Source of the DNA: a virus
Lineage: Duplodnaviria > Heunggongvirae > Uroviricota > Caudoviricetes
IMG/VR virus record: IMGVR_UViG_3300018080_000120
Direction: 5' to 3' (one strand)
DNA: 64,000 bases
Shown here: positions 3,119 through 43,468 of the stretch, piece by piece
Position numbering within the stretch: the stretch's first letter is position 1
How the letters are laid out: every line of letters starts with the position of its first letter
The notes under the pieces: generated by a model
What the model was told of the DNA's origin: nothing
The model's input: the letters and a program-made list of their open reading frames with translations, nothing else
Database searches by the model: none
Translations under genes and position numbers: made by a program

Positions 3119-3279
3119 TAGTGAAATTCCGATTTTTGAGCAATTTTGACGATTTTTTCAAGCAAAATACGATTTTTCGTCAAAAAACCGAATTCTTTTG
3201 AACAAAACGCTAATTTTTCGAAAATTTTGCTATTTTTAGCAAGCAAAATGACCATTTTTTCGATTTTGGGGGTAAAAAA
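3119..3279 (+). repeat. intergenic tandem array of ~7 degenerate ~20-22 bp units (GATTTTTY...CAAAAW)
   Basis: visible repeats: cgatttttgagcaattttgac / gattttttcaagcaaaatac / gatttttcgtcaaaaaacc / gaattcttttgaacaaaacgc / taatttttcgaaaattttgc / tatttttagcaagcaaaatgacc / attttttcgattttggg. Confidence 0.6.
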
Positions 3280-3281
3280 CC

Positions 3282-4034
3282 ATGGAAATATCAGCTCTGT
3301 CAAATAACCCATATGTTGTCAATATTTTTCCTGAACCAGAGAAAATTTCTGATATCAATGATGTGATCCAGAGCATTTTACCCTCGAACGACCTATTTGA
3401 CACAATCAGCGCCATTCAGAACGCTCAGATGGAACTTTTCCGCATTTCGGCGGGGGTAGATTATGGCAAAGCCAGTAGCCTGGATTATGTAAAATACCTG
3501 CAACAAGGAAATCCAAGAATAAAGGCTCTGGCCATGTCTATCGTTAGTCCGTGGGATAGTAATGACACCAAAATGTATAAACTGGAACAATGGGTCATTA
3601 ATAATATTGATTATGTATCTGACTGGGAAAATTATGGTCAGGATGAATACTGGGCTTACCCGACTCAAACTCTGGATCGCATGTCGGGGGATTGTGAAGA
3701 TGGCGCATTTTTACTCCATTCTCTTGCTCTTGCTGCTGGTGTTCCAGCTGAGAGGCTTCGAACTTATGGAGGTCTCGTTTTTAATCCCTATGGAACTCAA
3801 GCCGCTGGCCATGGTTGGACTTCATATCAAAGAGAATCAGATGATGAATGGATCGTAATGGACTGGTGTTATTGGCCAGAAGATTCTCCCGTCGGGGAAA
3901 GAACCCCTATGACGGAAGCTTTAAAATATATCGATGATTTCTTCTTCGTAAGTGCAAAAGAAGGAACAGTAGAAACTCCTTACTCAAATAGAGTGAGATA
4001 CGCAATGGGAGATCTCGTCAATATTTTCGCCTAA
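3282..4034 (+). CDS. transglutaminase-like cysteine protease/transglutaminase superfamily protein
   Basis: GDCEDGAFLLHSLALAAGVPAERLRTYGG (Cys core), GHGW (His), WIVMDW (Asp) = Cys-His-Asp triad of TGase-like fold. Confidence 0.7.
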   Translation: MEISALSNNPYVVNIFPEPEKISDINDVIQSILPSNDLFDTISAIQNAQMELFRISAGVDYGKASSLDYVKYLQQGNPRIKALAMSIVSPWDSNDTKMYKLEQWVINNIDYVSDWENYGQDEYWAYPTQTLDRMSGDCEDGAFLLHSLALAAGVPAERLRTYGGLVFNPYGTQAAGHGWTSYQRESDDEWIVMDWCYWPEDSPVGERTPMTEALKYIDDFFFVSAKEGTVETPYSNRVRYAMGDLVNIFA

Positions 4035-4264
4035 AATCGAAAAAGTGTAACAGTTTAGGGAATGTTCAGCCACCCCCCTATAAAATGGCGACCTCGATAT
4101 AACCCGGTAAAATTTGGTCTCCCCGGCTGGCAAAACCACATAATATATAATAATATCATAAACATACAAAATCAGGTATTTTACCATGAAAATAATACTT
4201 ACATTATGGCTGGTATTTACATTATACCATATAATATTAATATATATACATTAGGAGATAAACC

Positions 4265-4390
4265 ATGAAAGATAAAACAAGGGAAAATATAACCATAGGA
4301 TTTATTATTGGTACGGCTATGGTTATAATATTACTATATTTCTTTGGCGATATGGTGGTAGATTGGTTGTTCCACAAACTAATGTGCTGA
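4265..4390 (+). CDS. small hydrophobic protein (41 aa)
   Basis: RBS ttaggagataaacc-ATG; one TM segment; below ORF-track size cutoff. Confidence 0.35.
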   Translation: MKDKTRENITIGFIIGTAMVIILLYFFGDMVVDWLFHKLMC

Positions 4391-4649
4391 ACACCATATA
4401 AATGTAAAATACCCTATAGTTTATAGGAGGATAGAATGATCTGGAAATTATTCGATTATACTTGCATTTGCGTCATGGACCGATATATCGACGGCTGGTA
4501 TTGTTTGGTTGTCGATTATTGGCTTTGTTACATGTTTTATTGATCTATGGGAGAATAGACCATGAAAAAAGTAATGTTGTATGTTTGTATATATGTGGTT
4601 TCGTTGATGGCTTGCACGGCTTTATTTATATGGTTGGATATACTATGAT

Positions 4650-5133
4650 TTATATTTATATATATATGCCGATCAAATTTTCAGTTCCGCAAAAAATTTT
4701 CGATCGATAAGTTTGGTCGGCCGATCGATGAGAATGTGTGGTCGATCGATACCCTGACGCATACATATATATAAGTAAATATATCATAATAAAATACAAT
4801 ATCAATAACTTAAACCATTACAAACCATACTCAAACCCTACATTTCTAATACTACATATCAAATTGTCCAATCATATCTGGCGTTTATCCTATTACACTT
4901 CTATATATACCCCGTATTCTTTTACTCTACTCTATTATATAAAATAAGTAAATAAATCAAGTAGTTGAATAGGTCAAAAATGGTGTAAAAATACCATAAT
5001 AATATCAACTATTTGGCAGACGATAAATATACCATAAATAAGGCGAAAATACCGAAAAATAGGCATACATATATAAATATATATTAATAGATATTTAAAC
5101 TATTGCCATTATTATGTAAAAGGAGATAACTTT
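4650..5133. promoter_or_regulatory. AT-rich non-coding region with iterons (candidate origin/regulatory region)
   Basis: three CGATCGAT copies at ~4702, ~4723, ~4743 (~21 bp spacing); AAATACCATAA-like repeats at ~4985-5060; no convincing ORF. Confidence 0.4.
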
Positions 5134-5301
5134 ATGACAGAATGGTTGAATAGATTAACGATTCAATTAGCTGGAATCTACGACTATCTCGTGAGCTTAC
5201 CAAAGGAAATATATCACTGGTTTATATCTCTAAGCCCATTGGCTCAGATAGGATTAGTATTATTAATTATTGCTGCCATCATAATAATGCTTGACGAATA
5301 G
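5134..5301 (+). CDS. small membrane protein (55 aa)
   Basis: RBS aaaggagataac; hydrophobic C-terminal half; in-frame 168 nt. Confidence 0.4.
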   Translation: MTEWLNRLTIQLAGIYDYLVSLPKEIYHWFISLSPLAQIGLVLLIIAAIIIMLDE

Positions 5302-5335
5302 TCACTAATAAATAAAAAGGAGGTTTTATTCTATT

Positions 5336-5788
5336 ATGAAATTATTTAGTATTATACTTTGTATAAGTTTACTTTACATGATGATTCACCCCGCGGCGAT
5401 CGCAGCAGAGGGGAGCACCATTTTCTGTTTCGAATGTAGTTATCCATGTTGGAGTGATGCAAAAGGCAATCATGCCACTTCCAAAAAATATCCTATGGAA
5501 TTCAAATTCGTATGGAAACTGGGAGAACGTAATGCCACAATGATAGGAAACGTTGGAACAGCTGAAGTGGCTGCCATACAAAACGCTTGTGGTATCACGT
5601 TTGTTGAGATAACAAATACTGGGAATGTCACAGCAACCACGATTAATCTCGAACAAATAAAAGAAATTAAAAAGAATGGCATCTTACAATATGTAATAAC
5701 TGAATCAGTTCACAGCCGTAACACTATAATGCCAGATGGATATCAAACATGGTGCCAATATTACGGAACTTGTGTTATTAAAAGATAA
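5336..5788 (+). CDS. secreted Cys-containing protein with signal peptide
   Basis: N-terminal MKLFSIILCISLLYMMIHPAAIAA signal; RBS aaaaggagg. Confidence 0.55.
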   Translation: MKLFSIILCISLLYMMIHPAAIAAEGSTIFCFECSYPCWSDAKGNHATSKKYPMEFKFVWKLGERNATMIGNVGTAEVAAIQNACGITFVEITNTGNVTATTINLEQIKEIKKNGILQYVITESVHSRNTIMPDGYQTWCQYYGTCVIKR

Positions 5789-5888
5789 GAATGCAAAAAA
5801 ACATAGGTATATTAATAATAGTGATATTTATTATCCTATGGATAATTGAAGGATAAACTATTGCCATATTTGGAGAAAAGAGGAAAAT

Positions 5889-6215
5889 ATGAGACAAAAA
5901 AGGGCTATCTCAATACTCAATCGATTGAAACTAACGTGGGATGAGAAAGAACAGGAAATGTTAATAGATGACCCATTTCCGAAAATCTCAGCGGATGAAT
6001 ATGAAGACTTAATTCAAGGATGTGACATGAGTGGGTCTCCAGGTCATGATGAACAACAAATTCTAAATCTACTTAAGGCAGCCTATCCAGTAATTCCTTT
6101 CAATATAATTAAACAATTGGAAGGTAGAAAATTACAAGGATTCAGCTATGATCGAAAAAAAGGTGTACTTATAGATATATCAGAAGAAAAAGTATATAAG
6201 TATCCAGAAGAATAG
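5889..6215 (+). CDS. hypothetical protein
   Basis: 108-aa ORF with RBS ggagaaaagagg. Confidence 0.5.
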   Translation: MRQKRAISILNRLKLTWDEKEQEMLIDDPFPKISADEYEDLIQGCDMSGSPGHDEQQILNLLKAAYPVIPFNIIKQLEGRKLQGFSYDRKKGVLIDISEEKVYKYPEE

Positions 6216-6217
6216 TC

Positions 6218-6255
6218 TTTACCAGAAAACATTTTACCCCGCGGCGATCCGCGGG
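6218..6255 (+). promoter_or_regulatory. family-1 upstream element E1 (TTTACCAGAAAACATTTTACC box + CCCCGCGGCGATCCGCGGG hairpin)
   Basis: perfect 7-bp GC stem, CGAT loop, ends 11 nt before ATG 6267 within SD. Confidence 0.7.
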
Positions 6256-6266
6256 AGGAGGAGAAA

Positions 6267-6674
6267 ATGAGCTTAAAAAAATGGATAATAGTAGATTTTG
6301 ACTGCTATCATGGTTGTAATAATCCAGAATTTAATCCAGGATGTGATGAGTCTTCAATCCGAATCAAAATTGATGCAGATTTAAGCAAGGAATACGATTT
6401 GTTCAAAAAGTACATGAAGATACCTTGTCCTCGCTGTGGTAAAGTTGGCGAGCAGAAGAGAAGTGGTTGGTGGGAAGTATCAAATAATGGCAAAATGAAA
6501 GACTATGATGGGTCTTTCTTCACATCAGCACATGTCCAAGATTACACAATAGAAATGATGGAAGCAAAAATCCAAGAAATTGATCATTCAATAGAGGCGC
6601 TAAAGAGGGAAAGAAAGGCTTTTGAAAAGAAAAAGGAGTTAGTCACGGAATGGGTAGAAATTCATAGAAATTAA
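6267..6674 (+). CDS. hypothetical Cys-containing protein (paralog of 12190..12597)
   Basis: 135 aa; about 60% identity to 12190 product (MSLKKWIIVDFDCYHGCNNPEF...PCPRCGKVGE). Confidence 0.65.
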   Translation: MSLKKWIIVDFDCYHGCNNPEFNPGCDESSIRIKIDADLSKEYDLFKKYMKIPCPRCGKVGEQKRSGWWEVSNNGKMKDYDGSFFTSAHVQDYTIEMMEAKIQEIDHSIEALKRERKAFEKKKELVTEWVEIHRN

Positions 6675-6681
6675 AGAATTA

Positions 6682-6703
6682 TTCACTCGCGGGCGATCCG
6701 CGG
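6682..6703 (+). promoter_or_regulatory. family-1 upstream element E2 (TTCACTCGCGGGCGATCCGCGG)
   Basis: hairpin CGCGG-GCGATC-CGCGG 14 nt before ATG 6718. Confidence 0.65.
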
Positions 6704-6717
6704 CGAGGAGATAAAAT

Positions 6718-7170
6718 ATGAGAAATGAACAGGGCTGGATAGTTATAGCCGAAACAAAAGATATTCCAGATGGCAACTATCTTCTGTCGTGGTGGTTTGA
6801 TGGCACTGGAGCGTATCCGGTACAGATTAAGGATGGTAAGGTGGCGCCTTATACCAGCTTTCGGGAGCCACAACCACTTTCTGTATTTAACAATTATCAC
6901 CTGCTTGAAGATACAAAAGAGCGAACCGTGTTCTATGAGGTAAACTACGACAGTGCAACGAATGTAGGACCTGCCACAGCCTACGGATCCACTCACCAAA
7001 TAGGATACTATAGAACATTACTCAATGCGAAGAAAGCGGCGGAAAAACATCGTGGGGGTGAGAAGATAGAGTGGGCTCCAAGTGAGGATGCTCTGACATG
7101 TAGATATTATATCAAAGAACAGTCCCGCAATGTTAAATATGAAATAATAGCACATTTGTTTGATGATTAA
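6718..7170 (+). CDS. hypothetical protein (N-terminus duplicated as remnant at 9285)
   Basis: 150 aa; first ~17 aa nearly identical to 9285..9395 remnant. Confidence 0.6.
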   Translation: MRNEQGWIVIAETKDIPDGNYLLSWWFDGTGAYPVQIKDGKVAPYTSFREPQPLSVFNNYHLLEDTKERTVFYEVNYDSATNVGPATAYGSTHQIGYYRTLLNAKKAAEKHRGGEKIEWAPSEDALTCRYYIKEQSRNVKYEIIAHLFDD

Positions 7171-7186
7171 TTTTAAGGAGAATAAT

Positions 7187-7384
7187 ATGTTAGAAACATT
7201 GACCGGAAAGAGAAGATTCCGTAAAGGATTCTTTGGTAAGTTAATACTTCAAGTAGAAGTCACAGCAGAATTCGATACGGAGATATGTCCAGGAATAGGG
7301 GATATCGAGAGAAGAGAAGTTACTGGATATCGGGATGCAACTATTGAAGACTTAACCGTACATGATAATGTAAAAGGAGAATAA
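7187..7384 (+). CDS. hypothetical small protein
   Basis: RBS ttaaggagaataat-ATG; 65 aa. Confidence 0.5.
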   Translation: MLETLTGKRRFRKGFFGKLILQVEVTAEFDTEICPGIGDIERREVTGYRDATIEDLTVHDNVKGE

Positions 7385-7385
7385 A

Positions 7386-7505
7386 ATGCCAGAAGCATTA
7401 AAACAAATGATGTGGTGTGTATTTGGAATACTTGCAATTTATGTAGGCATATATCTTTTGTTTAGTATTCCTGTTATAGTATATAAACTTATAGAACGTT
7501 TATAA
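7386..7505 (+). CDS. small membrane protein (39 aa)
   Basis: RBS aaaaggagaataaa-ATG; single TM. Confidence 0.35.
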   Translation: MPEALKQMMWCVFGILAIYVGIYLLFSIPVIVYKLIERL

Positions 7506-7510
7506 GAGCT

Positions 7511-7546
7511 TTTACCAGAAAACATTTTACCCCGCGGCGATCCGCG
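7511..7546 (+). promoter_or_regulatory. family-1 upstream element E3 (TTTACCAGAAAACATTTTACCCCGCGGCGATCCGCG)
   Basis: second copy of extended box + hairpin, ends 12 nt before ATG 7559. Confidence 0.7.
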
Positions 7547-7558
7547 TTAGAGGTGATA

Positions 7559-7882
7559 ATGAAAGAACCAGAAATAATAAAAGAGTATCAAGTCAGAACT
7601 ATGCGAAAATGGGTAGAGTTAGGGCCAAATCGCAGATGTCCAAGATACTGGCGAGATATAATCTGCTCAAAATCAAGGAGATGCGTCTGCCTTAGAGATG
7701 TTGAAACCCCATGGTGCTGGGGATGTGCGGATTGTGAAAGATTTTTCCCAAAGGTAAGCCGTGGTATGAAGGAAAACAGTGATAACTTTCCTTGTCCTTG
7801 TGACTTATATGGCAAAGAGCAAGTTGTAAAAATGGCAAAAAAGTATATCAGAGGATGGGAAGAACAAAGTTATGAGCAATAG
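7559..7882 (+). CDS. Cys-rich small protein
   Basis: multiple Cys pairs (CPRYW...CVCLRDVETPWCWGCADC). Confidence 0.55.
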   Translation: MKEPEIIKEYQVRTMRKWVELGPNRRCPRYWRDIICSKSRRCVCLRDVETPWCWGCADCERFFPKVSRGMKENSDNFPCPCDLYGKEQVVKMAKKYIRGWEEQSYEQ

Positions 7883-7890
7883 CCTGATTA

Positions 7891-7911
7891 TTCACCCGCA
7901 GGCGATCCGCG
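7891..7911 (+). promoter_or_regulatory. family-1 upstream element E4 (TTCACCCGCAGGCGATCCGCG)
   Basis: degenerate hairpin 14 nt before ATG 7926. Confidence 0.6.
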
Positions 7912-7925
7912 TTAAGGAGGTGAGT

Positions 7926-8582
7926 ATGTATAAATATATAGTATTACTAATCAGTATGTTATGTCTGGTAGCATGTGCTCCTTCTTATGAAGAATTGTGT
8001 GAGAAACGTACTAAGATAGAAACTGAATTAGTGCTCTGGGCTAATTGTAGGAGTAGTTTCGCTCAGACATCTAATATGATACAGAAAATCCGCGAACTGG
8101 ATAAAATCACTGCTGAAATAGAGAAACACTATCCAGCCAAATGCCAGCAGGAATTAGAAGAGAATAAACCAAAAGTGGTAAAAACCTATGACAGTTTTAT
8201 AATAACTTCTGATGGATATGTTATCGAGGCAGATAAGAGAACATATTTCTACGAAGGATATGAGTATGGAAGGCGCTGTAGCTGTCTATTCGACGATCTA
8301 AGTGTATTATATGAGGACTACGACCTAAACGCCGTCCACGAGCTGGTCGCAACATATCCAAGGTGCTTCACACCTGTGAAAGCATGGACTCTTGGAGTAC
8401 TGTGTAATAAGCCAGAGAAACTGCCTGAAGGATATACATACTCAGGAATGCATAAAATAAGATTTAGCGGGTCATATAAAAAATACTATGCACATGCAAA
8501 ACAACTATTCATGTTCCAGACTTATCAAGAACCAAAACCCAAATATTTAGATATAGGAGAAGACTACGAGTTGGTAGAATAG
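7926..8582 (+). CDS. lipoprotein
   Basis: MYKYIVLLISMLCLVAC lipobox signal peptide. Confidence 0.55.
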   Translation: MYKYIVLLISMLCLVACAPSYEELCEKRTKIETELVLWANCRSSFAQTSNMIQKIRELDKITAEIEKHYPAKCQQELEENKPKVVKTYDSFIITSDGYVIEADKRTYFYEGYEYGRRCSCLFDDLSVLYEDYDLNAVHELVATYPRCFTPVKAWTLGVLCNKPEKLPEGYTYSGMHKIRFSGSYKKYYAHAKQLFMFQTYQEPKPKYLDIGEDYELVE

Positions 8583-8627
8583 TATATAACTATATATACC
8601 TAACTATTTTAGGCATTTAACACTCTA
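8581..8627 (+). repeat. family-2 upstream element A (AGTATATAACTATATATACCTAACTATTTT...)
   Basis: shares AAGTATRTATTACTAAYTATTT box with copies at 8891 and 9388. Confidence 0.5.
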
Positions 8628-8639
8628 TTGGAGGGCCAT

Positions 8640-8861
8640 ATGATTACACTGAAAGAAGGGGACATTTGCCCAGAATGTGAGAGGGGGCATTTAAAGCCAG
8701 CTGTGAAGGATATAAACTTTACATGTAAGGGTAAAGTGTTCTTTTCAGAAGAAAATATGGCCATACTACGCTGTGATCTATGTGACTATAAAACCTTTAG
8801 GGATAGGGCAAAAAGCGAAGAAATCGAAAAGGCCCTTATAGCGTTTCGAGAAAAGATGTAA
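8640..8861 (+). CDS. zinc-ribbon small protein
   Basis: CPECERG...CDLCDY; SD ggaggg 5 nt upstream. Confidence 0.55.
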   Translation: MITLKEGDICPECERGHLKPAVKDINFTCKGKVFFSEENMAILRCDLCDYKTFRDRAKSEEIEKALIAFREKM

Positions 8862-8890
8862 AAGGGCATAAATTGTATCTATGTATGTAT

Positions 8891-8951
8891 AAGTATATAT
8901 TACTAACTATTTGCTGAGCCATATCAGTGGTTTAGCAGTGATCAAGGAGGG
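8891..8951 (+). repeat. family-2 upstream element B (AAGTATATATTACTAACTATTT ... GTTTAGCAGTGATCAAGGAGGG)
   Basis: two conserved boxes; ends 5 nt before ATG 8957. Confidence 0.6.
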
Positions 8952-8956
8952 TCAGA

Positions 8957-9250
8957 ATGAAAGATACCAATTTCACGGTAGAAATAGATGTAGGTGATGG
9001 CAGAACCTTACACTTCAATACCGATCAGTTGAAGATAGACATCTATCAATTATCTGGTAAAGAACGGGTAAAGGCAATGCATATATTCGGTGTTGCAGAA
9101 GGGATTATACCAAGAGATCAGCCAGAACAGAAAGTTATGACACTTAAAGCTGAAGCTGTTTGTAAGCCTGATAGTGGTGTTGATGTACTTAAGAGAGGGC
9201 CTCATGGTAATAAGAATAGTGTTATAACCTTTAGTTCAAGTGAAATGTAA
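8957..9250 (+). CDS. hypothetical protein
   Basis: 97-aa ORF downstream of family-2 element. Confidence 0.5.
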   Translation: MKDTNFTVEIDVGDGRTLHFNTDQLKIDIYQLSGKERVKAMHIFGVAEGIIPRDQPEQKVMTLKAEAVCKPDSGVDVLKRGPHGNKNSVITFSSSEM

Positions 9251-9272
9251 TTCACCCGCGACCGATCCACAC
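9251..9272 (+). promoter_or_regulatory. family-1 upstream element E5, degenerate (TTCACCCGCGACCGATCCACAC)
   Basis: left arm conserved, right arm decayed; precedes gene remnant. Confidence 0.5.
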
Positions 9273-9284
9273 TAGGAGACAAAT

Positions 9285-9395
9285 ATGAGGAACGAACAAG
9301 GCTGGATAGTTATAGCCAAAACAGAAAATATACCACCAGTTGATTGCTTTCTACTGGGTAATGAAATCAACGAGTTCGTCAATCATGGTATATAA
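9285..9395 (+). pseudogene. truncated paralog (36 codons) of 6718..7170
   Basis: MRNEQGWIVIAKTENIP... matches MRNEQGWIVIAETKDIP...; DNA near-identical for ~50 nt then diverges to early stop. Confidence 0.5.
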
Positions 9396-9453
9396 GTATG
9401 TATTACTAATATTTTATAACGCCTTTTCGGGGCGTTAGCGGTGATCCAGGAGG
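9388..9453 (+). repeat. family-2 upstream element C (GGTATATAAGTATGTATTACTAATATTTT ... hairpin AACGCC-TTTTCGG-GGCGTT ... GCGTTAGCGGTGATCCAGGAGG)
   Basis: 6-bp perfect hairpin at ~9418-9436 embedded between the two boxes. Confidence 0.6.
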
Positions 9454-9458
9454 TCATT

Positions 9459-9668
9459 ATGGCAAGACAGCAATTTTTCTATTTATTAGAAATTGATGAT
9501 GAAGTTGAAAATGAGGTATTTTACAACACAAAACAAATAGTAGATCACATAGAAGAACAAGGACTGGTCAATGGAGATGAAGATGTACAGGTTTTGAAAG
9601 TAAAGCTCCATAAAGTTATTAAGCCTATTATAGAGAGAAAGATTACTATACCAGAGGATACAGAATAA
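9459..9668 (+). CDS. hypothetical acidic small protein
   Basis: ATG 6 nt after ccaggagg SD (ORF-track GTG 9441 also possible). Confidence 0.5.
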   Translation: MARQQFFYLLEIDDEVENEVFYNTKQIVDHIEEQGLVNGDEDVQVLKVKLHKVIKPIIERKITIPEDTE

Positions 9669-9676
9669 CCCGATAA

Positions 9677-9697
9677 TTCACCCACGACCGATTCGTG
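9677..9697 (+). promoter_or_regulatory. family-1 upstream element E6, compensatory variant (TTCACCCACGACCGATTCGTG)
   Basis: stem CACGA/TCGTG preserved by paired substitutions; 14 nt before ATG 9712. Confidence 0.65.
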
Positions 9698-9711
9698 AGA
9701 AAGAGGAGGAA

Positions 9712-9897
9712 ATGAAGTTATACTTTTTATTCAGAGTCAGTTTGCTAAGCACGACCAAGGATATTTGTAGGAAAGAGATGATGAAACCGGTGAGTGCCAG
9801 CACAGAGCAGAATGCAGTGAATAAACTCTTGCGTTACTTCGATTTTAATCACGAAGGCTGGAAAGTTGAAGAGATAGAAAACTGTACAATATCATAG
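9712..9897 (+). CDS. hypothetical small protein
   Basis: 61-aa ORF. Confidence 0.45.
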   Translation: MKLYFLFRVSLLSTTKDICRKEMMKPVSASTEQNAVNKLLRYFDFNHEGWKVEEIENCTIS

Positions 9898-9918
9898 CGT
9901 TAGCAGTGATCAAGGGGG
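9897..9918 (+). repeat. family-2 upstream element D (GCGTTAGCAGTGATCAAGGGGG)
   Basis: second box only; 7 nt before GTG 9926. Confidence 0.55.
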
Positions 9919-9925
9919 TAAGAAC

Positions 9926-10192
9926 GTGAACATTAAGAAAATAGGTAAATTTATCGAAATAGACCCAACACATTTGTTCTATAAAAAGTATACCATATGG
10001 AGTAATGGAGGCATGTTAGTAGATCGTCGTAAACCTACAAGGGTACAATCATATTTAGATGAATTGCCTCTTCTCTGGGAAGTACTTTTGAAAGCTGCAT
10101 ACTATGTAATTACATGGCCTATTGCAGCAGTTATTAAGTTCGTGTGGTACTTACTTACTGGTATATTTGTTCCTTCTAGGTTTTTAAGGTAG
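9926..10192 (+). CDS. hypothetical protein with C-terminal TM segment (GTG start)
   Basis: 88-aa ORF; hydrophobic C-terminus. Confidence 0.45.
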   Translation: MNIKKIGKFIEIDPTHLFYKKYTIWSNGGMLVDRRKPTRVQSYLDELPLLWEVLLKAAYYVITWPIAAVIKFVWYLLTGIFVPSRFLR

Positions 10193-10212
10193 GAAACAGG
10201 ACAACCTGATTA

Positions 10213-10234
10213 TTCACCCGCGCGAGGATTCGCG
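10213..10234 (+). promoter_or_regulatory. family-1 upstream element E7, compensatory variant (TTCACCCGCGCGAGGATTCGCG)
   Basis: stem CGCGA/TCGCG, loop GGAT. Confidence 0.65.
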
Positions 10235-10252
10235 AGAAAGGGAGGAAGGAGA

Positions 10253-10423
10253 ATGTTTAGACTATTCAAAAAAGACCCTCTAAAAAGGAAGCTAAGAAAG
10301 GCTAAAAGGGCAAAGAAGCAGGAAAGTAAAGCATATTGGAAAGCTGCCGAGGCAAGATGGAAAGAAGGACTTAGAATCGATGAATACATGGAGATGTGTA
10401 TACCGGCTGGAACTATGATTTAA
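10253..10423 (+). CDS. small basic protein (56 aa)
   Basis: strong SD gggaggaaggaga; follows E7; below ORF-track cutoff. Confidence 0.45.
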   Translation: MFRLFKKDPLKRKLRKAKRAKKQESKAYWKAAEARWKEGLRIDEYMEMCIPAGTMI

Positions 10424-10478
10424 ATCCACTACATAAAGCGTAATTCGCCCTGTGGTAACCAACAAGGAGGAGCAGATA

Positions 10479-10793
10479 ATGACAAAATCAGAAATTAACA
10501 GAGTAATGGAGAAAGTCAAACTTAATCCGATGCCTATTGATGAAAAGACAGGAAAACAGAATCCTTGGATATGCCCAAAATGTCAGGCTGAAGGCAAAGC
10601 AAAAGAAGAAATTCTGGATGAGAAAACTGAGTCTGCGGACTTCATGCTCGGAAATGAATCACTGTCGTACATAGAAATGGCGTGTGAATGTGGCTACGAG
10701 TGGTATATTATCTTGGAGTCAAAAGGCTGGACGGATGATGATGTTGCAGCGGAAGATATAATAAGCAAATTCATCCATGAAAAAGAAGAGTAA
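10479..10793 (+). CDS. zinc-ribbon protein
   Basis: CPKCQ...CECG; SD caaggagg. Confidence 0.55.
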   Translation: MTKSEINRVMEKVKLNPMPIDEKTGKQNPWICPKCQAEGKAKEEILDEKTESADFMLGNESLSYIEMACECGYEWYIILESKGWTDDDVAAEDIISKFIHEKEE

Positions 10794-10839
10794 GCAACAT
10801 TATTCATTCGTAGCTATCTGCGAAAAAGGAGGAAAAGAT

Positions 10840-11112
10840 ATGTCTGAGGAGAAAACAAGAGTAATTGACGGAGTCGAATATGAAGAAATGGGCCCTTACT
10901 GTGATATATGTGGGGCTCATATGGGTGAATACTATGATCCTAAGAAGGGATCTTTTATTAACCCGCACAATTATGATGAATACAGCAGCAATGTTTGCCC
11001 AGAATGCGGCCAGGAATATTCTTACGAAGAGGGTGATATGCCTATACTTGATGATGAAATGAAGGCTCTTATACTGGCGCATAACAAAGCGAAGCTCAAA
11101 GGAAAAGAGTAG
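10840..11112 (+). CDS. zinc-ribbon protein
   Basis: CDICG...CPECG; SD aaaggagg. Confidence 0.55.
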   Translation: MSEEKTRVIDGVEYEEMGPYCDICGAHMGEYYDPKKGSFINPHNYDEYSSNVCPECGQEYSYEEGDMPILDDEMKALILAHNKAKLKGKE

Positions 11113-11120
11113 GACAAATC

Positions 11121-11140
11121 TTTACCCGCGGCGATCCGCG
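11121..11140 (+). promoter_or_regulatory. family-1 upstream element E8 (TTTACCCGCGGCGATCCGCG)
   Basis: 13 nt before ATG 11154. Confidence 0.65.
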
Positions 11141-11153
11141 TTAGGAGGATAGA

Positions 11154-11498
11154 ATGATAAATCTTAAAGACTACATTTTAGACAGGATAGCGATTTCGTG
11201 CACTAACTTTCAACCATCGCTAACAGCAATGCGGCTTTTCGGAAGCTCGACCAGCTACGATAATATAGAATATGTATATATCTATAAAGATAACAAACGT
11301 GTGGGCAGCCTTAAGCTGTACTTCGAAGTGGATACTTTTAAAATAACCTTGGATAAAGGCCAGTTAGGTATGTTTAAAGGCAAATCGTATACTGGGCAGT
11401 ACGCCGATTTAACAGCTCTTGATGGAGTGGCCCAATGGCTTATTAAAGAAGCGGTTTCTGAGAACATCGACAAGGCCAAGCTCAAAGAAAAGAGATAA
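11154..11498 (+). CDS. hypothetical protein
   Basis: 114-aa ORF. Confidence 0.55.
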   Translation: MINLKDYILDRIAISCTNFQPSLTAMRLFGSSTSYDNIEYVYIYKDNKRVGSLKLYFEVDTFKITLDKGQLGMFKGKSYTGQYADLTALDGVAQWLIKEAVSENIDKAKLKEKR

Positions 11499-11540
11499 AC
11501 TCTTTATCTACTCAGCGATCCTCATAAAGGTGGTGAAACA

Positions 11541-11738
11541 ATGAACTTCGAAAAAATGAGAGAAACCTGTCCATCACATATTACAGAATATCATGGACAC
11601 TGGCATAAATGTAGATCTCGAATACATCGGGAGACTGCAAGAGGCCAGGTACTCTTTGATGTCTGTAGTAAGAAAAACTGTCCTTTTTTACATGTGTTAA
11701 GGCATGTGTTGGGATTTGTGAAGGAAAAAAGAGGATGA
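11541..11738 (+). CDS. His/Cys-containing small protein
   Basis: 65-aa ORF, SD aaaggtggtg. Confidence 0.45.
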   Translation: MNFEKMRETCPSHITEYHGHWHKCRSRIHRETARGQVLFDVCSKKNCPFLHVLRHVLGFVKEKRG

Positions 11739-11914
11739 TCTCAAAAGAACAATTATTACATATTGTGAGTGTTTGTCCAGATAAGATGCCATCAGAAAAA
11801 GAACTCAAAGATCTGTATGAGTGTCATCTTAGACAATGTAAACATCCAAAGGAAGAAGATGAGTACTGGCAAAGAGTAACGAATAGAGTTAATGATATAA
11901 TAAGAAAAAAGTAG
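11735..11914 (+). CDS. small protein (59 aa)
   Basis: ATGA overlap with upstream; SD aaaagagg. Confidence 0.4.
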   Translation: MISKEQLLHIVSVCPDKMPSEKELKDLYECHLRQCKHPKEEDEYWQRVTNRVNDIIRKK

Positions 11915-11916
11915 TT

Positions 11917-11953
11917 TTTACCAGAAAACGTTTTACCCCGCGGCGATCCGCGG
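11917..11953 (+). promoter_or_regulatory. family-1 upstream element E9 (TTTACCAGAAAACGTTTTACCCCGCGGCGATCCGCGG)
   Basis: third copy of extended box + perfect hairpin. Confidence 0.7.
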
Positions 11954-11966
11954 AGAGGAGGAGAGA

Positions 11967-12146
11967 ATGCTAGTAAAAATCAATTTGAAAGATGGGGAAG
12001 AACCTATACACGGATCATCATGGGATATCGATGAGCCTAGTGGCATGATAATACTGAGAGGAAAAACGCCAGCACCTGATGAGAAAGTATATGAATACAA
12101 TGTACCTATAGATAATATAGTGTATATCCAAGAATTGGAAGAATAA
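11967..12146 (+). CDS. small protein (59 aa)
   Basis: SD gaggaggagaga. Confidence 0.45.
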   Translation: MLVKINLKDGEEPIHGSSWDIDEPSGMIILRGKTPAPDEKVYEYNVPIDNIVYIQELEE

Positions 12147-12154
12147 CCAAATTC

Positions 12155-12176
12155 TTTACCGCGCGAGGATCCGCGC
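12155..12176 (+). promoter_or_regulatory. family-1 upstream element E10 variant (TTTACCGCGCGAGGATCCGCGC)
   Basis: stem GCGCG/CGCGC with GGATCC loop. Confidence 0.65.
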
Positions 12177-12189
12177 TGAGGAGAAGCAA

Positions 12190-12597
12190 ATGAGCTTAAA
12201 AAAATGGATAATAGTAGATTTTGACTGCTATCATGGTTGTAATAATCCGGAGTTTAAGATCGGCTGCGACGAATCCCTTATCCGTATTAAGATCGATGAC
12301 ACTTTGGCCATGAAGCATATGCTTGCCAAAAAATATATGAGAATGCCCTGCCCTCGTTGCGGTAAGGTTGGTGAGCACAAGAGATCTGGCTATTGGCTGG
12401 CTCCAGAAGATGGACAGATGGAAGATTACGATGGGACTACTTTCACTCCTGCGGACGTTCAGGACTACACAGCAGAAATGATGGAAGCGAAAATTTCAGA
12501 AATTGCCCACCTGATAAGCAACAAGAAGGAGGAACTGACAGCCCTTGAGAAAGAAAAGGAGTCTATAAAGGAATGGGTAGAAATTCATAAAAATTAA
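12190..12597 (+). CDS. hypothetical Cys-containing protein (paralog of 6267..6674)
   Basis: 135 aa, same length and register as 6267 product. Confidence 0.65.
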   Translation: MSLKKWIIVDFDCYHGCNNPEFKIGCDESLIRIKIDDTLAMKHMLAKKYMRMPCPRCGKVGEHKRSGYWLAPEDGQMEDYDGTTFTPADVQDYTAEMMEAKISEIAHLISNKKEELTALEKEKESIKEWVEIHKN

Positions 12598-12604
12598 AGA
12601 ACTA

Positions 12605-12626
12605 CCCACCCCGCGGCGATCTACGG
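12605..12626 (+). promoter_or_regulatory. family-1 upstream element E11, degenerate (CCCACCCCGCGGCGATCTACGG)
   Basis: left arm intact, right arm mutated. Confidence 0.5.
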
Positions 12627-12642
12627 AGAGGAGGCAAAAGAT

Positions 12643-12885
12643 ATGTATTTATCAGCCACGCCAGAAAATATGGAAATCGCACTGGCAATCACAAAGGAGC
12701 ATGGTGAAAACGCCAATGTGCAAATAATATCTCGTGATAAACTGAGCGCCTCCAACAAATCATTGAAAGCGCGTCATCCTGATGCAAAAGCTTTTATCTT
12801 TCTGAGCAACATAGATGTGGTATGTTTATGTACTCGGGAACTTGAAAAATATCTTGAAAAACTGGAGAAGGAGAAAGAAAAGTGA
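12643..12885 (+). CDS. hypothetical protein
   Basis: 80-aa ORF. Confidence 0.5.
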   Translation: MYLSATPENMEIALAITKEHGENANVQIISRDKLSASNKSLKARHPDAKAFIFLSNIDVVCLCTRELEKYLEKLEKEKEK

Positions 12886-13079
12886 TAGCAGTTTTTTTCA
12901 TTATAATTTTTGCCACAATGATGATAGCTTTAATGCAAGGAGTAGGATTATGTAATTTTATTACAAAATATGATTGGTCGCCTCTAAAAAGTGTGGTTAT
13001 AACTGTATTTGCTGCATTGGTAGATGGAGTTCTCATGACATGCCTTCTCTATGAAATATGTGGCATATCATTCTTTTAA
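12882..13079 (+). CDS. small membrane protein
   Basis: two TM segments; ATGA overlap. Confidence 0.45.
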   Translation: MIAVFFIIIFATMMIALMQGVGLCNFITKYDWSPLKSVVITVFAALVDGVLMTCLLYEICGISFF

Positions 13080-13088
13080 GGAAAATCT

Positions 13089-13415
13089 ATGATTAAAAAT
13101 CTATTATTATCAATAGTATTTGTTTTATACTGCGGCGCAAATGCTTTGGCGGCTGACAAATGGAATACTGAAGAAAAAGTTCTCTATGGAACTTTCATCG
13201 GATTACAGGCTTTAAACTACGGCAACACAAATGAAGCTTGTGAACAAGGCACGGAAGCAATGCCTCATATGAAGAAAATTCATGAGAAATATGGTTCAAC
13301 AGGTCTTGTTGTTTACAAAGTAGTTACCACAGCAGGTGTTGGTGTTGTAGCTCATTTTCTTCCGAAGCCTTATAGGAGATATTTCCTATGGGGGGGCAAA
13401 TTTCGTTGTTGGTAG
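13089..13415 (+). CDS. secreted protein with signal peptide
   Basis: MIKNLLLSIVFVLYCGANALA signal. Confidence 0.5.
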   Translation: MIKNLLLSIVFVLYCGANALAADKWNTEEKVLYGTFIGLQALNYGNTNEACEQGTEAMPHMKKIHEKYGSTGLVVYKVVTTAGVGVVAHFLPKPYRRYFLWGGKFRCW

Positions 13416-13477
13416 TTTTGTGATACATGATAATTTTGTTGCTGCACATTTCAAATGGTAGGAGGTTAAAAAACATA

Positions 13478-14272
13478 ATGAAAATTGCTGTTCTAAGCAA
13501 ACTGTTCGCTGAAGGGGTAGCACCAGTGGTAGGAAGGCCCTATGCAATAATTAGCATTACCGACCCAACATCGGATAGTGCTACATTCAAACCGAATGAG
13601 TATTGCAGGGGTGTCCTATTCTTAAAGTTTTACGATATTGACTTTACCGACCCGGAAAAAACTGATGACCAAGTTGCCGTGAAAAGAGATTATGGACACG
13701 GTCTATTCACGAATGAGCAAGCAAAACAAATAGTTGACTTTGTTGAAGAAATCAAAGACAAAGTGAAAATCATCATTTGTAATTGCGATGCTGGCATTTC
13801 TAGGTCATCAGGTGTTGGTGCTGCCATTCAGAAATATCTAACCGGCTCGGATAAAGAAATATTTAACGATAATCGATATCTGCCAAATATGTATGTATAT
13901 CGGAAAGTTCTAAATGAGTTTTACAAGGAGGAAATAACGATGCAAAAATTTCAACGAGGACAAAGAGTACGAATAACAGATAAAATGCCTTCTTCTATGT
14001 CGCATTTTGAATGTGACTGCGAAGCTATTGTAGAATATACTTATACTGAAAGATATCATGGAGGCGAAAATAATGATAAAGAATATTCTTTGTTTATTCT
14101 TGTGGAACCTGGTACAAAGCTCGTGAGTCTGGAAACTGGCGAAGTGAGTACCGATAGAGAAGGATACTCAATTTCTTGGTACAAAGAAGACCAACTTACA
14201 TTGGTAAACAAAGACCCAAAACCAGGCCTTGAAATTCTAAAAAGAGCTGGCAGAGAAATAACATGGAAATGA
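13478..14272 (+). CDS. dual-specificity/tyrosine phosphatase-like protein with C-terminal extension
   Basis: ICNCDAGISRSSGVGAAI = CX5R(S) P-loop (HCxAGxxRSG-like); SD ggtaggagg. Confidence 0.55.
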   Translation: MKIAVLSKLFAEGVAPVVGRPYAIISITDPTSDSATFKPNEYCRGVLFLKFYDIDFTDPEKTDDQVAVKRDYGHGLFTNEQAKQIVDFVEEIKDKVKIIICNCDAGISRSSGVGAAIQKYLTGSDKEIFNDNRYLPNMYVYRKVLNEFYKEEITMQKFQRGQRVRITDKMPSSMSHFECDCEAIVEYTYTERYHGGENNDKEYSLFILVEPGTKLVSLETGEVSTDREGYSISWYKEDQLTLVNKDPKPGLEILKRAGREITWK

Positions 14273-14583
14273 AAAAACGAGAATGGATGTACGTCCAGCA
14301 GCCAGCCGAATATGAAATGAGCTGTGACAAATGTGGTGGGGTTAATATCACATGGTCAGAATTCGAAGGTCATATCTGGTGTTACGACTGTGAAATAGAC
14401 ACACCAGGAAATGCTGGTGTCTTTGATGGCCCAATCCCTCTGGCCACAGCCGCTTTGCTCGGAATGAACTTCTCCATAGTCTACCTTGAAACTGGCAAGG
14501 TCGAAACACCGGTCGTAGAGCATGGCCGAATCGTGTGGAAGGAGATAGACTTAAAGAAAGGGAAAACAAATGGTCAGACTTAA
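14263..14583 (+). CDS. zinc-ribbon protein
   Basis: CDKCGG...CYDCE. Confidence 0.5.
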   Translation: MEMKKREWMYVQQPAEYEMSCDKCGGVNITWSEFEGHIWCYDCEIDTPGNAGVFDGPIPLATAALLGMNFSIVYLETGKVETPVVEHGRIVWKEIDLKKGKTNGQT

Positions 14584-15704: not shown

Positions 15705-16042
15705 TATACTATGAATACGATGATGGCTGGTACTTCCTATTAGATGAGACTCGGCAATGTCTTTGGTCTGGAAAAGAGATAGCTGTAGGATTTTCCTATG
15801 ACCCTGACGATGATCCCATTCCCGGCACTCTCCATAAGCACGGTAGTCCAGAAGCCATAAATAAGTGGGCTGCTGAGCAGCGTAAACTATTGAGTGCAGC
15901 TGGACTCCAGGATATGGCCAAAAGAATCATTGTAGTTTCCGGTCAGATTCCAGTTGAAGATCTGAATAAGATCATTTCTATCAGCGGATACGTCGGGATA
16001 TGGTACAAAAGAATGCAAGAAAAAAAGGAGCGTAATGAGTAA
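15701..16042 (+). CDS. hypothetical protein
   Basis: ATGA-coupled 113-aa ORF. Confidence 0.5.
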   Translation: MIYYEYDDGWYFLLDETRQCLWSGKEIAVGFSYDPDDDPIPGTLHKHGSPEAINKWAAEQRKLLSAAGLQDMAKRIIVVSGQIPVEDLNKIISISGYVGIWYKRMQEKKERNE

Positions 16043-16269: not shown

Positions 16270-16824
16270 ATGAAAAACGTGCTTGAAGATTTTGAAAATG
16301 GTGAAGTATTCAATCTAAAAAAAGAAGAATCTCTATTTGGCCCTTCTGATACCCCCGCCGTGATCCTGCATAATCCCAAATATCCTCATAATGTTGGTGC
16401 AGTAGTTCGGGCTTTATCTTGCTTTGGTGGTAAAACCTTGGTTTTTACAGGCAACCGGGTTTCTTTAACTCCGCCGGAAAATAAGGGGTATCGCTTACCG
16501 AGAGAGGAAAGAATGAAGGGATACAAAGATGTCACCATGATCAATGATGACTACCCTTTCAATCGCTTTTCTAAAAATGTTATTCCGGTCGCAATAGAAG
16601 TAAGGCGTAATTCTACACCATTGCCTATTTTCGAGCACCCTGAAAATGCTGTCTATGTGTTTGGGCCTGAAGATGGTAGCATTCCACAGGTTATGCTCCA
16701 ACATTGTCAGAGATTCGTGGTGATTCCGTCCAAACACTGCTTAAATTTGGCAGCGGCGGTGAACGTTATTCTTTATGACAGAATATCAAAACTTAACATA
16801 CTTATAGAGGAGGACATAAGATGA
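16270..16824 (+). CDS. SpoU/TrmH-family (SPOUT) RNA 2'-O-methyltransferase
   Basis: PHNVGAVVRALSCFG, VYVFGPEDGSIP, VVIPSKHCLNLAAAVNVILYDR = SpoU motifs 1-3; start chosen after upstream zinc-ribbon gene (ORF track extends to 16078). Confidence 0.75.
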   Translation: MKNVLEDFENGEVFNLKKEESLFGPSDTPAVILHNPKYPHNVGAVVRALSCFGGKTLVFTGNRVSLTPPENKGYRLPREERMKGYKDVTMINDDYPFNRFSKNVIPVAIEVRRNSTPLPIFEHPENAVYVFGPEDGSIPQVMLQHCQRFVVIPSKHCLNLAAAVNVILYDRISKLNILIEEDIR

Positions 16825-17052: not shown

Positions 17053-17289
17053 ATGGGAAAAGTAACCCCATATGGTCTACAGTCGTGGAATTTGTGGAAC
17101 ATTTTCACAGGCCGAAAAAAATATACCATTTGTTGTGGGAAATGTCACCATGTTTACGAAGATAAACTAAACTTTCATTTAAATGACACCGCTTCCTCTA
17201 TTTGCCCAGGCTGTGGAAGCCAAAATGTGTGGTCTCATTCCAAATGGGCAGCTTACATGGAGCATGAACTGGAAAAAAGGAGCAAATAA
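17053..17289 (+). CDS. zinc-ribbon protein
   Basis: CCGKCHH...CPGCGS. Confidence 0.5.
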   Translation: MGKVTPYGLQSWNLWNIFTGRKKYTICCGKCHHVYEDKLNFHLNDTASSICPGCGSQNVWSHSKWAAYMEHELEKRSK

Positions 17290-25119: not shown

Positions 25120-26037
25120 TTGATTGAACTAAGCAAAGATTACGAAAGAATATATGATAACATAATCGATCACACAGGGCGCTATATACAAAAACATAAA
25201 TTGCAATCTGTAGTGATTGGGTTATCTGGTGGAATAGATAGCACTCTGACCGCAGCTCTTGCAGATGCTATAGCTTGGGATATTGATGTCCATCTGAGAA
25301 TAATCGGCGTAAGTATTCCTTCTATGACCAACCATCAGGCCGAAATAGAAAGGGCGAGAAAGACGGGCGAAGCTTTTTGTGATGAGCTTCATGTAATGGG
25401 CAAGGGATTCGGCACAAAGAGATATACTCTGGATTCCATTCTTAAAGCATTCACCTCTCGGCTAAAACCATATAACAAAATCTTCCCCATTCCTATCGCA
25501 ATCCGGAATAGAAGTTCTAGAATGCAAAAGGTTGGCCGAGGCAATTTGAAAGCTCGAATAAGAATGGCAATTCTTTATGACATTGCCCATCATCGTTCAG
25601 GTATGGTTTTATCTACTGATAACTATACTGAATATTTACTCGGCTTCTGGACCTTACATGGAGATGTCGGCGATTTTGGAATGTTTCAAAACTTATTCAA
25701 GACCGAAGTTTACGGGCTTGCTAAGTATGTTTCCACCCGCCTTGTGAAGAAAGGTTGGAAGAATAAAAAACTCCCTCTGCAAATTGAGGCGCTTAGGGAA
25801 GCTGCTTCAGCTATTCCAACGGATGGGCTTGGTCTTGGCAGCGATATGGATCAGATAGGAGCCTCGAATTATTATCAGGTTGACAAAGTCTTGTTGAAAC
25901 ATCTAAATGATGTTCCTATAGTTTCGCCTTATATAGCCGAGAGAATGACAGCCGATCGTATTATTAAAAGACACAAAAGTACGAATTATAAAAGGCATAA
26001 TCCATATAACATTCCAAGAGAGGGCTTATTGAAATGA
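25120..26037 (+). CDS. nadE: NH3-dependent NAD+ synthetase-like PP-loop ATPase (TTG start)
   Basis: GLSGGIDSTLTAALA PP-loop; TDNYTEYLLGFWTLHGDVGDFGMFQNLFKTEVYGLAKYV matches NadE region (GTDNKSE..GY.T.YGDG...P...L.K..V..LA). Confidence 0.65.
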   Translation: MIELSKDYERIYDNIIDHTGRYIQKHKLQSVVIGLSGGIDSTLTAALADAIAWDIDVHLRIIGVSIPSMTNHQAEIERARKTGEAFCDELHVMGKGFGTKRYTLDSILKAFTSRLKPYNKIFPIPIAIRNRSSRMQKVGRGNLKARIRMAILYDIAHHRSGMVLSTDNYTEYLLGFWTLHGDVGDFGMFQNLFKTEVYGLAKYVSTRLVKKGWKNKKLPLQIEALREAASAIPTDGLGLGSDMDQIGASNYYQVDKVLLKHLNDVPIVSPYIAERMTADRIIKRHKSTNYKRHNPYNIPREGLLK

Positions 26038-40637: not shown

Positions 40638-41019
40638 TATGTTGAAAGCGGCTCTTAAACTTGTGCGAACTTTTATACGGCTGTTATTCAAAGCTGTTTA
40701 TCTGTCTCTAAGGAACAGAATTTACAAATTGTTAGCGCGTTTTCTCATGAGCAAGTATTTTCTGTTCCTGGCGAAAATCTATTATTCAACAAAATGGGTC
40801 ATACCATATAATAGAGCTAAAGTCTGTATGGCTTATCGCTTGTACGAAGGCAGCGAACTTTATCGGCAGCGGTGCATTCAAGTAAACCCGCATTTTGCTG
40901 AAGAGTCCTTTATAACTTGCAAGGGATATAACTATTTCAGGCACAAACTTACTAAGATGGACAAGTTGAAAGCTTTGGTAATTCCTTTCAATTATTGCTC
41001 GCCGCCACAGGAGGATTGA
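40609..41019 (+). CDS. hypothetical protein
   Basis: SD ggaggg 5 nt upstream; track ORF from 40597. Confidence 0.5.
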   Translation: MKSILRSILDMLKAALKLVRTFIRLLFKAVYLSLRNRIYKLLARFLMSKYFLFLAKIYYSTKWVIPYNRAKVCMAYRLYEGSELYRQRCIQVNPHFAEESFITCKGYNYFRHKLTKMDKLKALVIPFNYCSPPQED

Positions 41020-41023
41020 TATT

Positions 41024-41227
41024 ATGTCAAAAGACTTGGTCGTCATTGATCCCAAAGTAATAGCAAAAACAATGGTAGATAAATTTGAATTCGACTTTGA
41101 TCAATTAAGAGAAAATGAGTGTGATGGTTGGTCTGATGCAATAATAGACGCTATGCAATATCTTTATGACATCGAAACAAAGGTTTACGAGCAGATGAAA
41201 TCGATATATCTCGGGAGTGGAAAATGA
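41024..41227 (+). CDS. hypothetical protein
   Basis: 67 aa. Confidence 0.45.
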   Translation: MSKDLVVIDPKVIAKTMVDKFEFDFDQLRENECDGWSDAIIDAMQYLYDIETKVYEQMKSIYLGSGK

Positions 41228-42355: not shown

Positions 42356-42364
42356 GAGAGAACA

Positions 42365-43459: not shown

Positions 43460-43468
43460 GAGATCAAT

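Follow-up and report, generated by a model that had tools for sequence, protein, structure and literature searches.

Reiterated start-associated spacers and an identical gene end as probable sites of cassette recombination in an uncultivated large phage

Introduction

According to the modular theory of tailed-phage mosaicism, relatives swap gene modules at short boundary or linker sequences, to which illegitimate joins add. Short structured elements also recur within single genomes, as in the early region of T7, where RNase III hairpins are found again and again between consecutive early genes on one polycistronic strand. Here we analyse a 64,000-nt stretch of the virus IMGVR_UViG_3300018080_000120 (Caudoviricetes; source contig of 124 kb), called the window throughout, in which a short repeat, family 1, fills the spacers of an array of small genes, among them two related genes for 135-aa proteins (copy A and copy B). 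An earlier note, made from the letters of this DNA, had proposed that such repeats act as hot-spots of homologous recombination at which small cassettes are duplicated or replaced.

Two described systems are particularly close to this locus. In T4-type phages, promoter-early stem-loop (PeSL) cassettes are reiterated intergenic motifs of hyperplastic regions that combine a promoter with a stem-loop, precede ORFans, and have a Shine-Dalgarno sequence and start codon at their end (PMC2839356, PMC4122927). Chimeric PeSLs are found at the borders of indels that distinguish close relatives, and excised circles have been detected as well (PMC2839356, PMC4122927). In Cluster K mycobacteriophages, the SAS repeat occurs just upstream of many start codons, nearly always in one orientation, and about half of the copies are directly preceded by an imperfect 17-bp inverted repeat whose spacer is short and variable (ESAS; PMC3203893). 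The function of SAS is unknown, a role in translation initiation being suspected; SAS and ESAS stay with their gene families from genome to genome and have not been described as recombination junctions (PMC3203893).

Results

Junction sequences in natural relatives

All genes of the source phage, which is large and uncultivated, lie on one strand, and the region at 5.3-12.7 kb of the window is a hyperplastic array of early genes, made of cassettes of one to three small ORFan genes whose spacers are completely occupied by repeat. The family-1 repeat forms the complete stop-to-start spacer, in gene orientation throughout; once diverged copies are read from the spacers, 13 copies (E1 to E13) are found in 6216-12642, that is, at least 13 in 7 kb. 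Copies A and B are each directly preceded by such an element, as the earlier note had stated (6216-6266 and 12147-12189, both whole spacers), and begin with the same 61-nt tract (Table 1). Recombination at the repeats and at this identical 5' tract has probably deleted, swapped and fused gene cassettes, and the junctions concerned can be read directly in the sequences of natural relatives.

Fragments of the same population were located by exact-protein look-ups in six other datasets. Most are 100% identical to the window, and an independent one of that identity, L009 (JGI 3300017991), carries the window-type junction of E10 with copy B. Two contigs, L010 and L023, are arranged differently, and further look-ups of neighbour genes yielded no additional arrangements.

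L010 (ENA ERZ27256783) is a 1,889-bp MEGAHIT contig from a k=141 assembly. It matches the window identically from 5651 through a 108-aa gene, E1 and the shared tract, and then continues into copy B, E11, and the 80-, 65- and 108-aa genes. Its informative sites are A-type upstream (50 of 50) and B-type downstream (160 of 160), with the switch falling within the 61-nt tract, so that everything from the body of copy A through the 5' tract of copy B is missing.

L023 (Logan SRR21285571) is a 36.8-kb contig that is mosaic overall with respect to the window, the shared blocks being 99.5-100% identical and including 1,095 consecutive nt at 100%. It carries the reciprocal of the L010 junction: B-type sites upstream (50 of 50, the E10 context), the shared tract, and then copy-A sequence, 99.6% identical to the window as far as 6593. 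Between its 39-aa and 114-aa genes stands a single hybrid element, which is E3-like in its left flank and E8-like in its right one and whose crossover falls within the shared core CCGCGGCGATCCGCGTTAG; a segment with 11 small genes is absent at this point. At 8038-8694 of L023, a copy-A type gene keeps its first 109 codons and then runs on in frame into an unrelated hydrophobic C-terminus (218 aa in total), and this gene is a natural domain-swap product of the same shuffling. Next come 2.4 kb of genes that the window lacks, after which homology restarts at 12637, the right edge of E11, 3 nt ahead of the start codon of the 80-aa gene. The latter and the 108-aa ORF (open reading frame) of L023 are alternative 5' ends of one gene in the two genomes, with a different 5' fusion. 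On the left, L023 homology begins near 7373, where the 39-aa gene has its ribosome-binding site. Two neighbouring small genes here share a 38-nt repeat (7163-7200 and 7362-7399, 76% identical) that covers their ribosome-binding sites and start codons, and the left edge of homology lies within its second copy.

L010 and L023 thus have one copy of the 135-aa gene each, in different combinations of context and body, and with the window all four natural combinations of context (E1 or E10) and body (A or B) are found. The paralogs are therefore not syntenic in relatives, and the cassette shuffling that the earlier note suggested is supported by presence/absence differences between genomes whose shared blocks have 99.5-100% identity. 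Of seven breakpoint positions, five are inside or next to an element or the 61-nt tract; these features together make up 8.7% of the region (binomial P ~1e-4, on few events). With regard to the hot-spot role given to the elements, the E3/E8 core junction and the E11 edge agree with it; E1 and E10 differ in sequence, and both A/B exchanges crossed in the 61-nt coding tract and not in the elements. The comparison with related genomes that the note had called for thus showed cassettes absent with a junction inside an element (3,594 bp, 11 genes), and also that not every breakpoint is at an element.

Several observations weigh against recombination of this kind. Two breakpoints are away from family-1 elements, one at the ribosome-binding site near 7373 and one inside coding sequence at 6593, and because of them illegitimate or other recombination must also contribute. 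The variant genomes are only two, so that the term hot-spot rests on few events, and no recombinase gene was identified among the 40 window proteins scanned. L010, in addition, is a short 1.9-kb MEGAHIT contig without single-nucleotide polymorphisms of its own, and could be an assembly chimera formed at the 61-nt repeat.

This last point can be extended to both variants: their junctions would be short-read chimeras at repeats, and the arrangement of the window would be the only one in nature. Many contigs of this phage do end at repeats (L011 covers 6296-7546, L025 stops at 12248 and L026 begins at 12219). However, a 61-nt repeat does not collapse at the k of 141 used for L010; none of four looked-up interval genes was present in the ERZ27256783 contigs, in which five flanking genes were present; and reciprocal junctions occur in the same tract in the output of two different pipelines. 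The chimera explanation is much harder to maintain for L023 than for L010. L023 was built at small k straight through the 61-nt tract and the element, its genome being therefore single-copy, and it has its own substitutions in addition to its novel sequence. We consider it very unlikely that both junctions are artefacts.

Copies A and B as probable old diverged genes with homogenised ends

The two 135-aa genes had been described in the earlier note as full-length paralogs with common N- and C-termini, and indeed their proteins align without gaps (69% identity, 79% similarity, E = 7e-71). At the nucleotide level, the duplication that was expected is seen at the gene ends, as well as in a match at 9285 discussed below, and not in the gene bodies, which are only ~65% identical (~35% diverged; 121 of 408 nt differ over the whole gene). 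The 61-nt identical run was not equalled in length in any of 100,000 permutations, and positions 381-400 of the coding sequence, the last 20 matching nt, are also an exact match. At conserved amino-acid positions with degenerate codons, identical codons number 17 of 18 in codons 1-20, 24 of 60 in codons 21-123, and 7 of 7 in codons 124-135; synonymous divergence is low at both gene ends only. The 135-aa family has 11 metagenomic members, across which the N-terminal motif is kept. The C-terminal EWVEIH is present in copies A and B only, in a part of the protein that is otherwise variable. Because this motif is not kept in the wider family, the identical ends do not stem from protein-level selection, and recent recombination or gene conversion accounts for them.

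Plain local duplication followed by decay offers another explanation, in which the 135-aa gene and the start of the 150-aa gene were copied in situ and the repeats are regulatory spacers outside the rearrangement. Two full-length paralogs and one truncated copy on the same strand within 6 kb would be in agreement with it. Nevertheless, the divergence of the A and B bodies stands against the near-identity of neighbouring blocks between relatives; divergence after duplication cannot account for identical ends; the relatives have one copy each, in all alternative combinations of context and body; and a hybrid E3/E8 element sits at a 3.6-kb presence/absence difference. There is accordingly little chance that local duplication explains the locus, and a recent in-situ duplication, as the earlier note had it, is an unlikely origin of the A/B pair. 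Copies A and B are more like old diverged alleles, or ancient paralogs brought together, whose ends were homogenised by recombination. Since the shared blocks are near-identical while the bodies are so diverged, the shuffling is recent and the split between A and B is old.

More distant relatives of the 135-aa gene (54-67% amino-acid identity) lie in tight arrays with ~10-nt spacers and without the element, and because of this different layout they could not be used for breakpoint mapping. Two distant relatives have repeats of their own: the contig ZHEN22-1 scaffold_264 (L001) has an 18-nt tandem repeat of ~16 units at 3238-3525, inside a 202-aa gene, and L004 has an unrelated 32-nt intergenic repeat, AATGAGAAAAGTATACGGGCTATAAAGAGAGG, upstream of small genes (15744-15775, 16605-16636 and 17153-17184).

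A gene start found again at 9285

The earlier note had also reported that the start of the 150-aa gene recurs behind the degenerate E5 as a 36-codon ORF, which proved correct over 51 nt and 15 of 17 amino acids. The match is 87% over 55 nt (6714-6768 against 9281-9335) and 82% over 88 nt when the element is included (6681-6768 against 9250-9335; element plus the first 51 nt of coding sequence). Past 9335 the sequence is unrelated to the 150-aa gene, and the stop codon of the ORF lies within the AT-rich box of a second repeat, family 2. It is plausible that this ORF is a decayed paralog of the 150-aa gene; no further homologue of the 150-aa protein was found in a set of 5.8 billion proteins. 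It would most likely be the leftover of a homologue most of which was replaced by a family-2-led cassette, and it is in line with the shuffling pattern because the element and ~50 nt of 5' coding sequence were kept and the rest was replaced.

The family-2 repeat occurs upstream of three other genes (8886-8950, 9383-9453 and 9882-9918). Its parts are the AT-rich box (TATAAGTAT-TATTACTAA-TATTT), a hairpin that varies (AACGCC..GGCGTT at 9421-9439) and, ahead of the start codon, GTTAGCRGTGATCMAGGRGG. An exact 13-mer, AAACTATTGCCAT, is present at 5097-5109 and 5855-5867, in each case ~25 nt before a start codon (genes 5134 and 5889), and may be a third start-associated or promoter-like motif.

Form and possible role of the family-1 repeat

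The 15-nt core CCGCGGCGATCCGCG has nine occurrences at up to three mismatches, all on the + strand and all in 5391-12625, where 0.18 are expected by chance. Two forms can be distinguished (Table 1). In the short form, of ~43 nt, ATTATTCACCC is followed by an inverted repeat around a CGAT loop and by GGAGG, and the spacer measures 41-46 nt in nine of the ten copies, the degenerate E5 having 34 nt; the three long forms, of 51-53 nt, have TTTACCAGAAAAC in addition upstream. The GGAGG ribosome-binding site is always inside the repeat, at a fixed distance from the start codon.

Exact-pattern scans of IMG/VR and of JGI metagenome contigs for the element returned only single chance matches in high-GC DNA, and protein-based scans of IMG/VR with copy A and the 150-aa protein returned no matches. 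An element-like sequence, TTCACCCCGCGGCGATCGCAGCAGAGG, lies at 5385-5411, in frame inside the ORF 5336..5788, where it codes for the last part of a predicted signal peptide (..MIHPAAIAAEG..); it may be a former spacer element that is now translated after a fusion.

Table 1. Positions in the window of the genes, family-1 elements and variable intervals discussed in the text.
Feature	Positions	Strand	Description
Copy A	6267..6674	+	135 aa, zinc-ribbon-like; function of protein unassigned
Copy B	12190..12597	+	135 aa; paralog or allele of copy A
Identical 61-nt tract	6265..6325 (= 12188-12248)	+	Coding positions 1-59 plus 2 upstream nt; crossover site in L010 and L023
Interval absent from L010	6326..12248	+	5,923 bp; copy A body through copy B 5' tract
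Interval absent from L023	7551..11144	+	3,594 bp; 11 small genes including the 9285 remnant
150-aa ORFan	6718..7170	+	First 51 nt found again at 9285
36-codon ORF	9285..9395	+	First 17 codons match the 150-aa gene (15/17 aa); probable gene remnant
80-aa gene	12643..12885	+	Equals last 80 codons of the 108-aa ORF of L023 (10682-11008), where its ATG is internal
E1	6216..6266	+	Long form, before copy A; TTTACC-N11-TTTTACC + CCGCGG-CGAT-CCGCGG + GGAGG
E2	6675..6717	+	Short form, before the 150-aa gene
E3	7506..7558	+	Long form; core 7532-7550 is the left crossover of the segment absent from L023
E4	7883..7925	+	Short form, A bulge in stem; before a lipoprotein-like gene starting at 7926
E5	9251..9284	+	Degenerate, hairpin lost
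E6	9669..9711	+	Short form; altered yet complementary stem CACGA...TCGTG
E7	10207..10252	+	Short form; stem CGCGA...TCGCG
E12	10794..10839	+	Diverged; stem UUCGUAG...CUGCGAA; 3' flank common to E11
E8	11113..11153	+	Short form; core 11126-11144 is the right crossover of the segment absent from L023
E13	11499..11540	+	Degenerate; CAGCGATCC kept, no hairpin
E9	11915..11966	+	Long form
E10	12147..12189	+	Short form, GCGCG-AGGATC-CGCGC; before copy B
E11	12598..12642	+	Partly degenerate; L023 homology restarts at right edge (12637)

A hairpin of 5-7 bp around a conserved GAT loop can be folded in nine of the 13 copies, and in the diverged copies E6, E7, E10 and E12 both arms have changed with complementarity kept. 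A selected hairpin has weak support: it is lost in four of the 13 copies; the fold z-scores of single copies are weak (-2.1 to +1.1); and a covariation count on a rigid ungapped alignment was weakly positive, as 59% of cells pair against 55% in shuffles, the observed value being reached by 26 of 500 shuffles.

A sigma-70 consensus scan showed no enrichment (37 sites against 38.9 expected) and no site spanning a family-1 element, one weak 9/12 match overlapping the 3' end of E6. No T-run and no + strand call was obtained at any family-1 element in an intrinsic-terminator scan, and Rfam covariance models gave no match at E <= 1 in 3900-14500 of the window. Two further ideas were dropped. The TTCACC flank was considered as an anti-Shine-Dalgarno sequence sequestering the ribosome-binding site, and the complementary GGUGA is present in E3 and E4 only. 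The GATC/CCGCGG core was considered in terms of restriction-site or methylation biology, and GATC is not avoided in the window (244 observed, 218-264 expected).

A role in early-gene expression is suggested because the repeat is on the coding strand, holds GGAGG, and keeps a fixed distance to the start codon. Our best guess from these features is that the element may be cis-regulatory, either as a hairpin that early transcripts form next to the ribosome-binding site or as an operator-like site. If so, recombination would be a by-product of its reiteration rather than its purpose.

Genomic surroundings

A 1.1-kb AT-rich and mostly non-coding stretch (4040-5130, GC ~0.32) precedes the small-gene array, separating it from a transglutaminase-like gene. 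It contains repeated AAATACC/TTTTACC motifs; possible roles are those of a genome end, an origin or a promoter region for early genes.

Elsewhere in the window, one 1,099-aa protein (53091-56390) has matches to Rpb2 domain 6 and Rpb1 domain 2 and looks like a fused two-barrel RNA polymerase; it had no match in a tblastn search of 50,697 isolated phage records. A megablast search of window positions 5000-13500 against isolated phages likewise gave no nucleotide match. The intervals 25120-27221, 39225-44782 and 49399-49962 jointly contain RNA-repair genes (CCA-adding enzyme, RNA ligase 2 and RtcB) and NAD-salvage genes (NAD synthase, NAPRTase and NUDIX). Two phiEco32-type COOH-NH2 ligases (at 45833 and 62027), a patatin and an SLT lysozyme domain are also encoded.

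Discussion

The arrangements reported here point to a mechanism in which the ~19-nt identical cores of the repeats and the identical ends of allelic genes would act as short homology for recombination. Such recombination, within one genome or between co-infecting relatives, would delete, insert, swap and fuse cassettes. The 135-aa genes would be old diverged versions of one gene that recombine with each other, which would homogenise their ends. The directions of the events, the recombinase and the element's own role in this scheme are what we infer.

The repeat might instead be a site for a dedicated enzyme, with cassettes moving as excised circles in place of passive homologous recombination. 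Candidate enzymes would be an HUH transposase (of the IS200/IS605 or REP-RAYT kind, with hairpin and TTAC), a structure-specific nuclease, or a hairpin-recognising phage RNA polymerase. Such activity is suggested by the TT(T/C)AC motif that directly precedes the inverted repeat on its 5' side in every intact copy, by the strict orientation of the copies and their confinement to a single region, and by the E3/E8 junction exactly in the inverted-repeat core; moreover, a graph of a deleted genome plus a 5.9-kb circle is the alternative resolution of the same repeats. However, transposase, integrase and HUH (Y1_Tnp) domains were not found in a scan of 40 proteins that took in neither the smaller ORFs nor the remaining 60 kb of the genome. 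The A/B crossovers, furthermore, are in coding sequence and not in the element, and the constant placement of the ribosome-binding site inside the repeat fits a role in gene expression. We regard an actively mobile element, with any of these enzymes, as improbable, and prefer recombination at short shared sequences.

A bolder proposal, which in our opinion is doubtful, combines these elements. The family-1 repeat would represent a new class of mobile start-associated regulatory module, a hairpin early promoter or operator read by the phage's own fused two-barrel RNA polymerase or by a phage regulator, and would actively carry ORFan cassettes between genomes, for instance as excised 3.6-kb and 5.9-kb circles. 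If true, it would be an independently evolved counterpart of the PeSL in a lineage without cultured relatives.

Recombination at shared spacers and gene ends is a known way of phage genome evolution, of which this locus is a new example. It provides evidence from nature, resolved to the base pair, that cassette exchange is channelled by reiterated start-associated spacers and by conserved gene ends; this evidence was obtained from metagenomes alone for a large phage lineage without a cultured relative, and it extends the PeSL idea beyond T4-type phages and promoter-terminator cassettes. It also calls for caution, as the same repeats break up short-read assemblies and can create or hide structural variants. 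Finally, with at least 13 strictly oriented copies at a fixed distance from start codons, the family-1 element gives a handle on early-gene control in this phage.

PeSLs are the closest known system. As with PeSLs, the 13 family-1 repeats of 6216-12642 are intergenic and reiterated in a hyperplastic region, precede ORFans, and have a Shine-Dalgarno sequence and start codon at the end; both have a G+C-rich stem-loop, a predicted one in family 1, and the 3,594-bp indel of L023 is bounded by a chimeric copy, E3/E8. Excision as circles, as proposed for PeSLs, would be a further likeness. In contrast, family-1 elements measure ~43-53 nt against ~100 nt for PeSLs and have neither a sigma-70 -35/-10 promoter nor a T-run terminator, and for want of these they are an analogue and not a member of that class. 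Exchange here also proceeds partly through identical 5' ends of allelic genes, not through the cassette; and the phage does not appear T4-like by its visible features, having its own two-barrel RNA-polymerase-like protein and no nucleotide or RNA-polymerase-protein match in isolated phages.

The resemblance to SAS/ESAS lies in the association with start codons, the single orientation and the inverted repeat upstream, although the latter is 17 bp there and 5-7 bp in family 1, and the host group is another. The 13-bp SAS consensus is not known to be related in sequence to family 1. IS200/IS605 and REP-RAYT elements have a hairpin with a conserved 5' tetranucleotide and a cognate HUH (Y1) transposase gene; a TT(T/C)AC motif 5' of the inverted repeat is present in family 1, and no Y1_Tnp domain was found among the 40 proteins scanned. 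The RNase III sites of T7 are much longer and more irregular helices than the family-1 hairpins, and we know of no evidence that they serve as recombination points. Compared with mosaicism at boundary or linker sequences in general, the shared sequence of this locus is defined and highly reiterated, and its junctions are resolved to the base pair.

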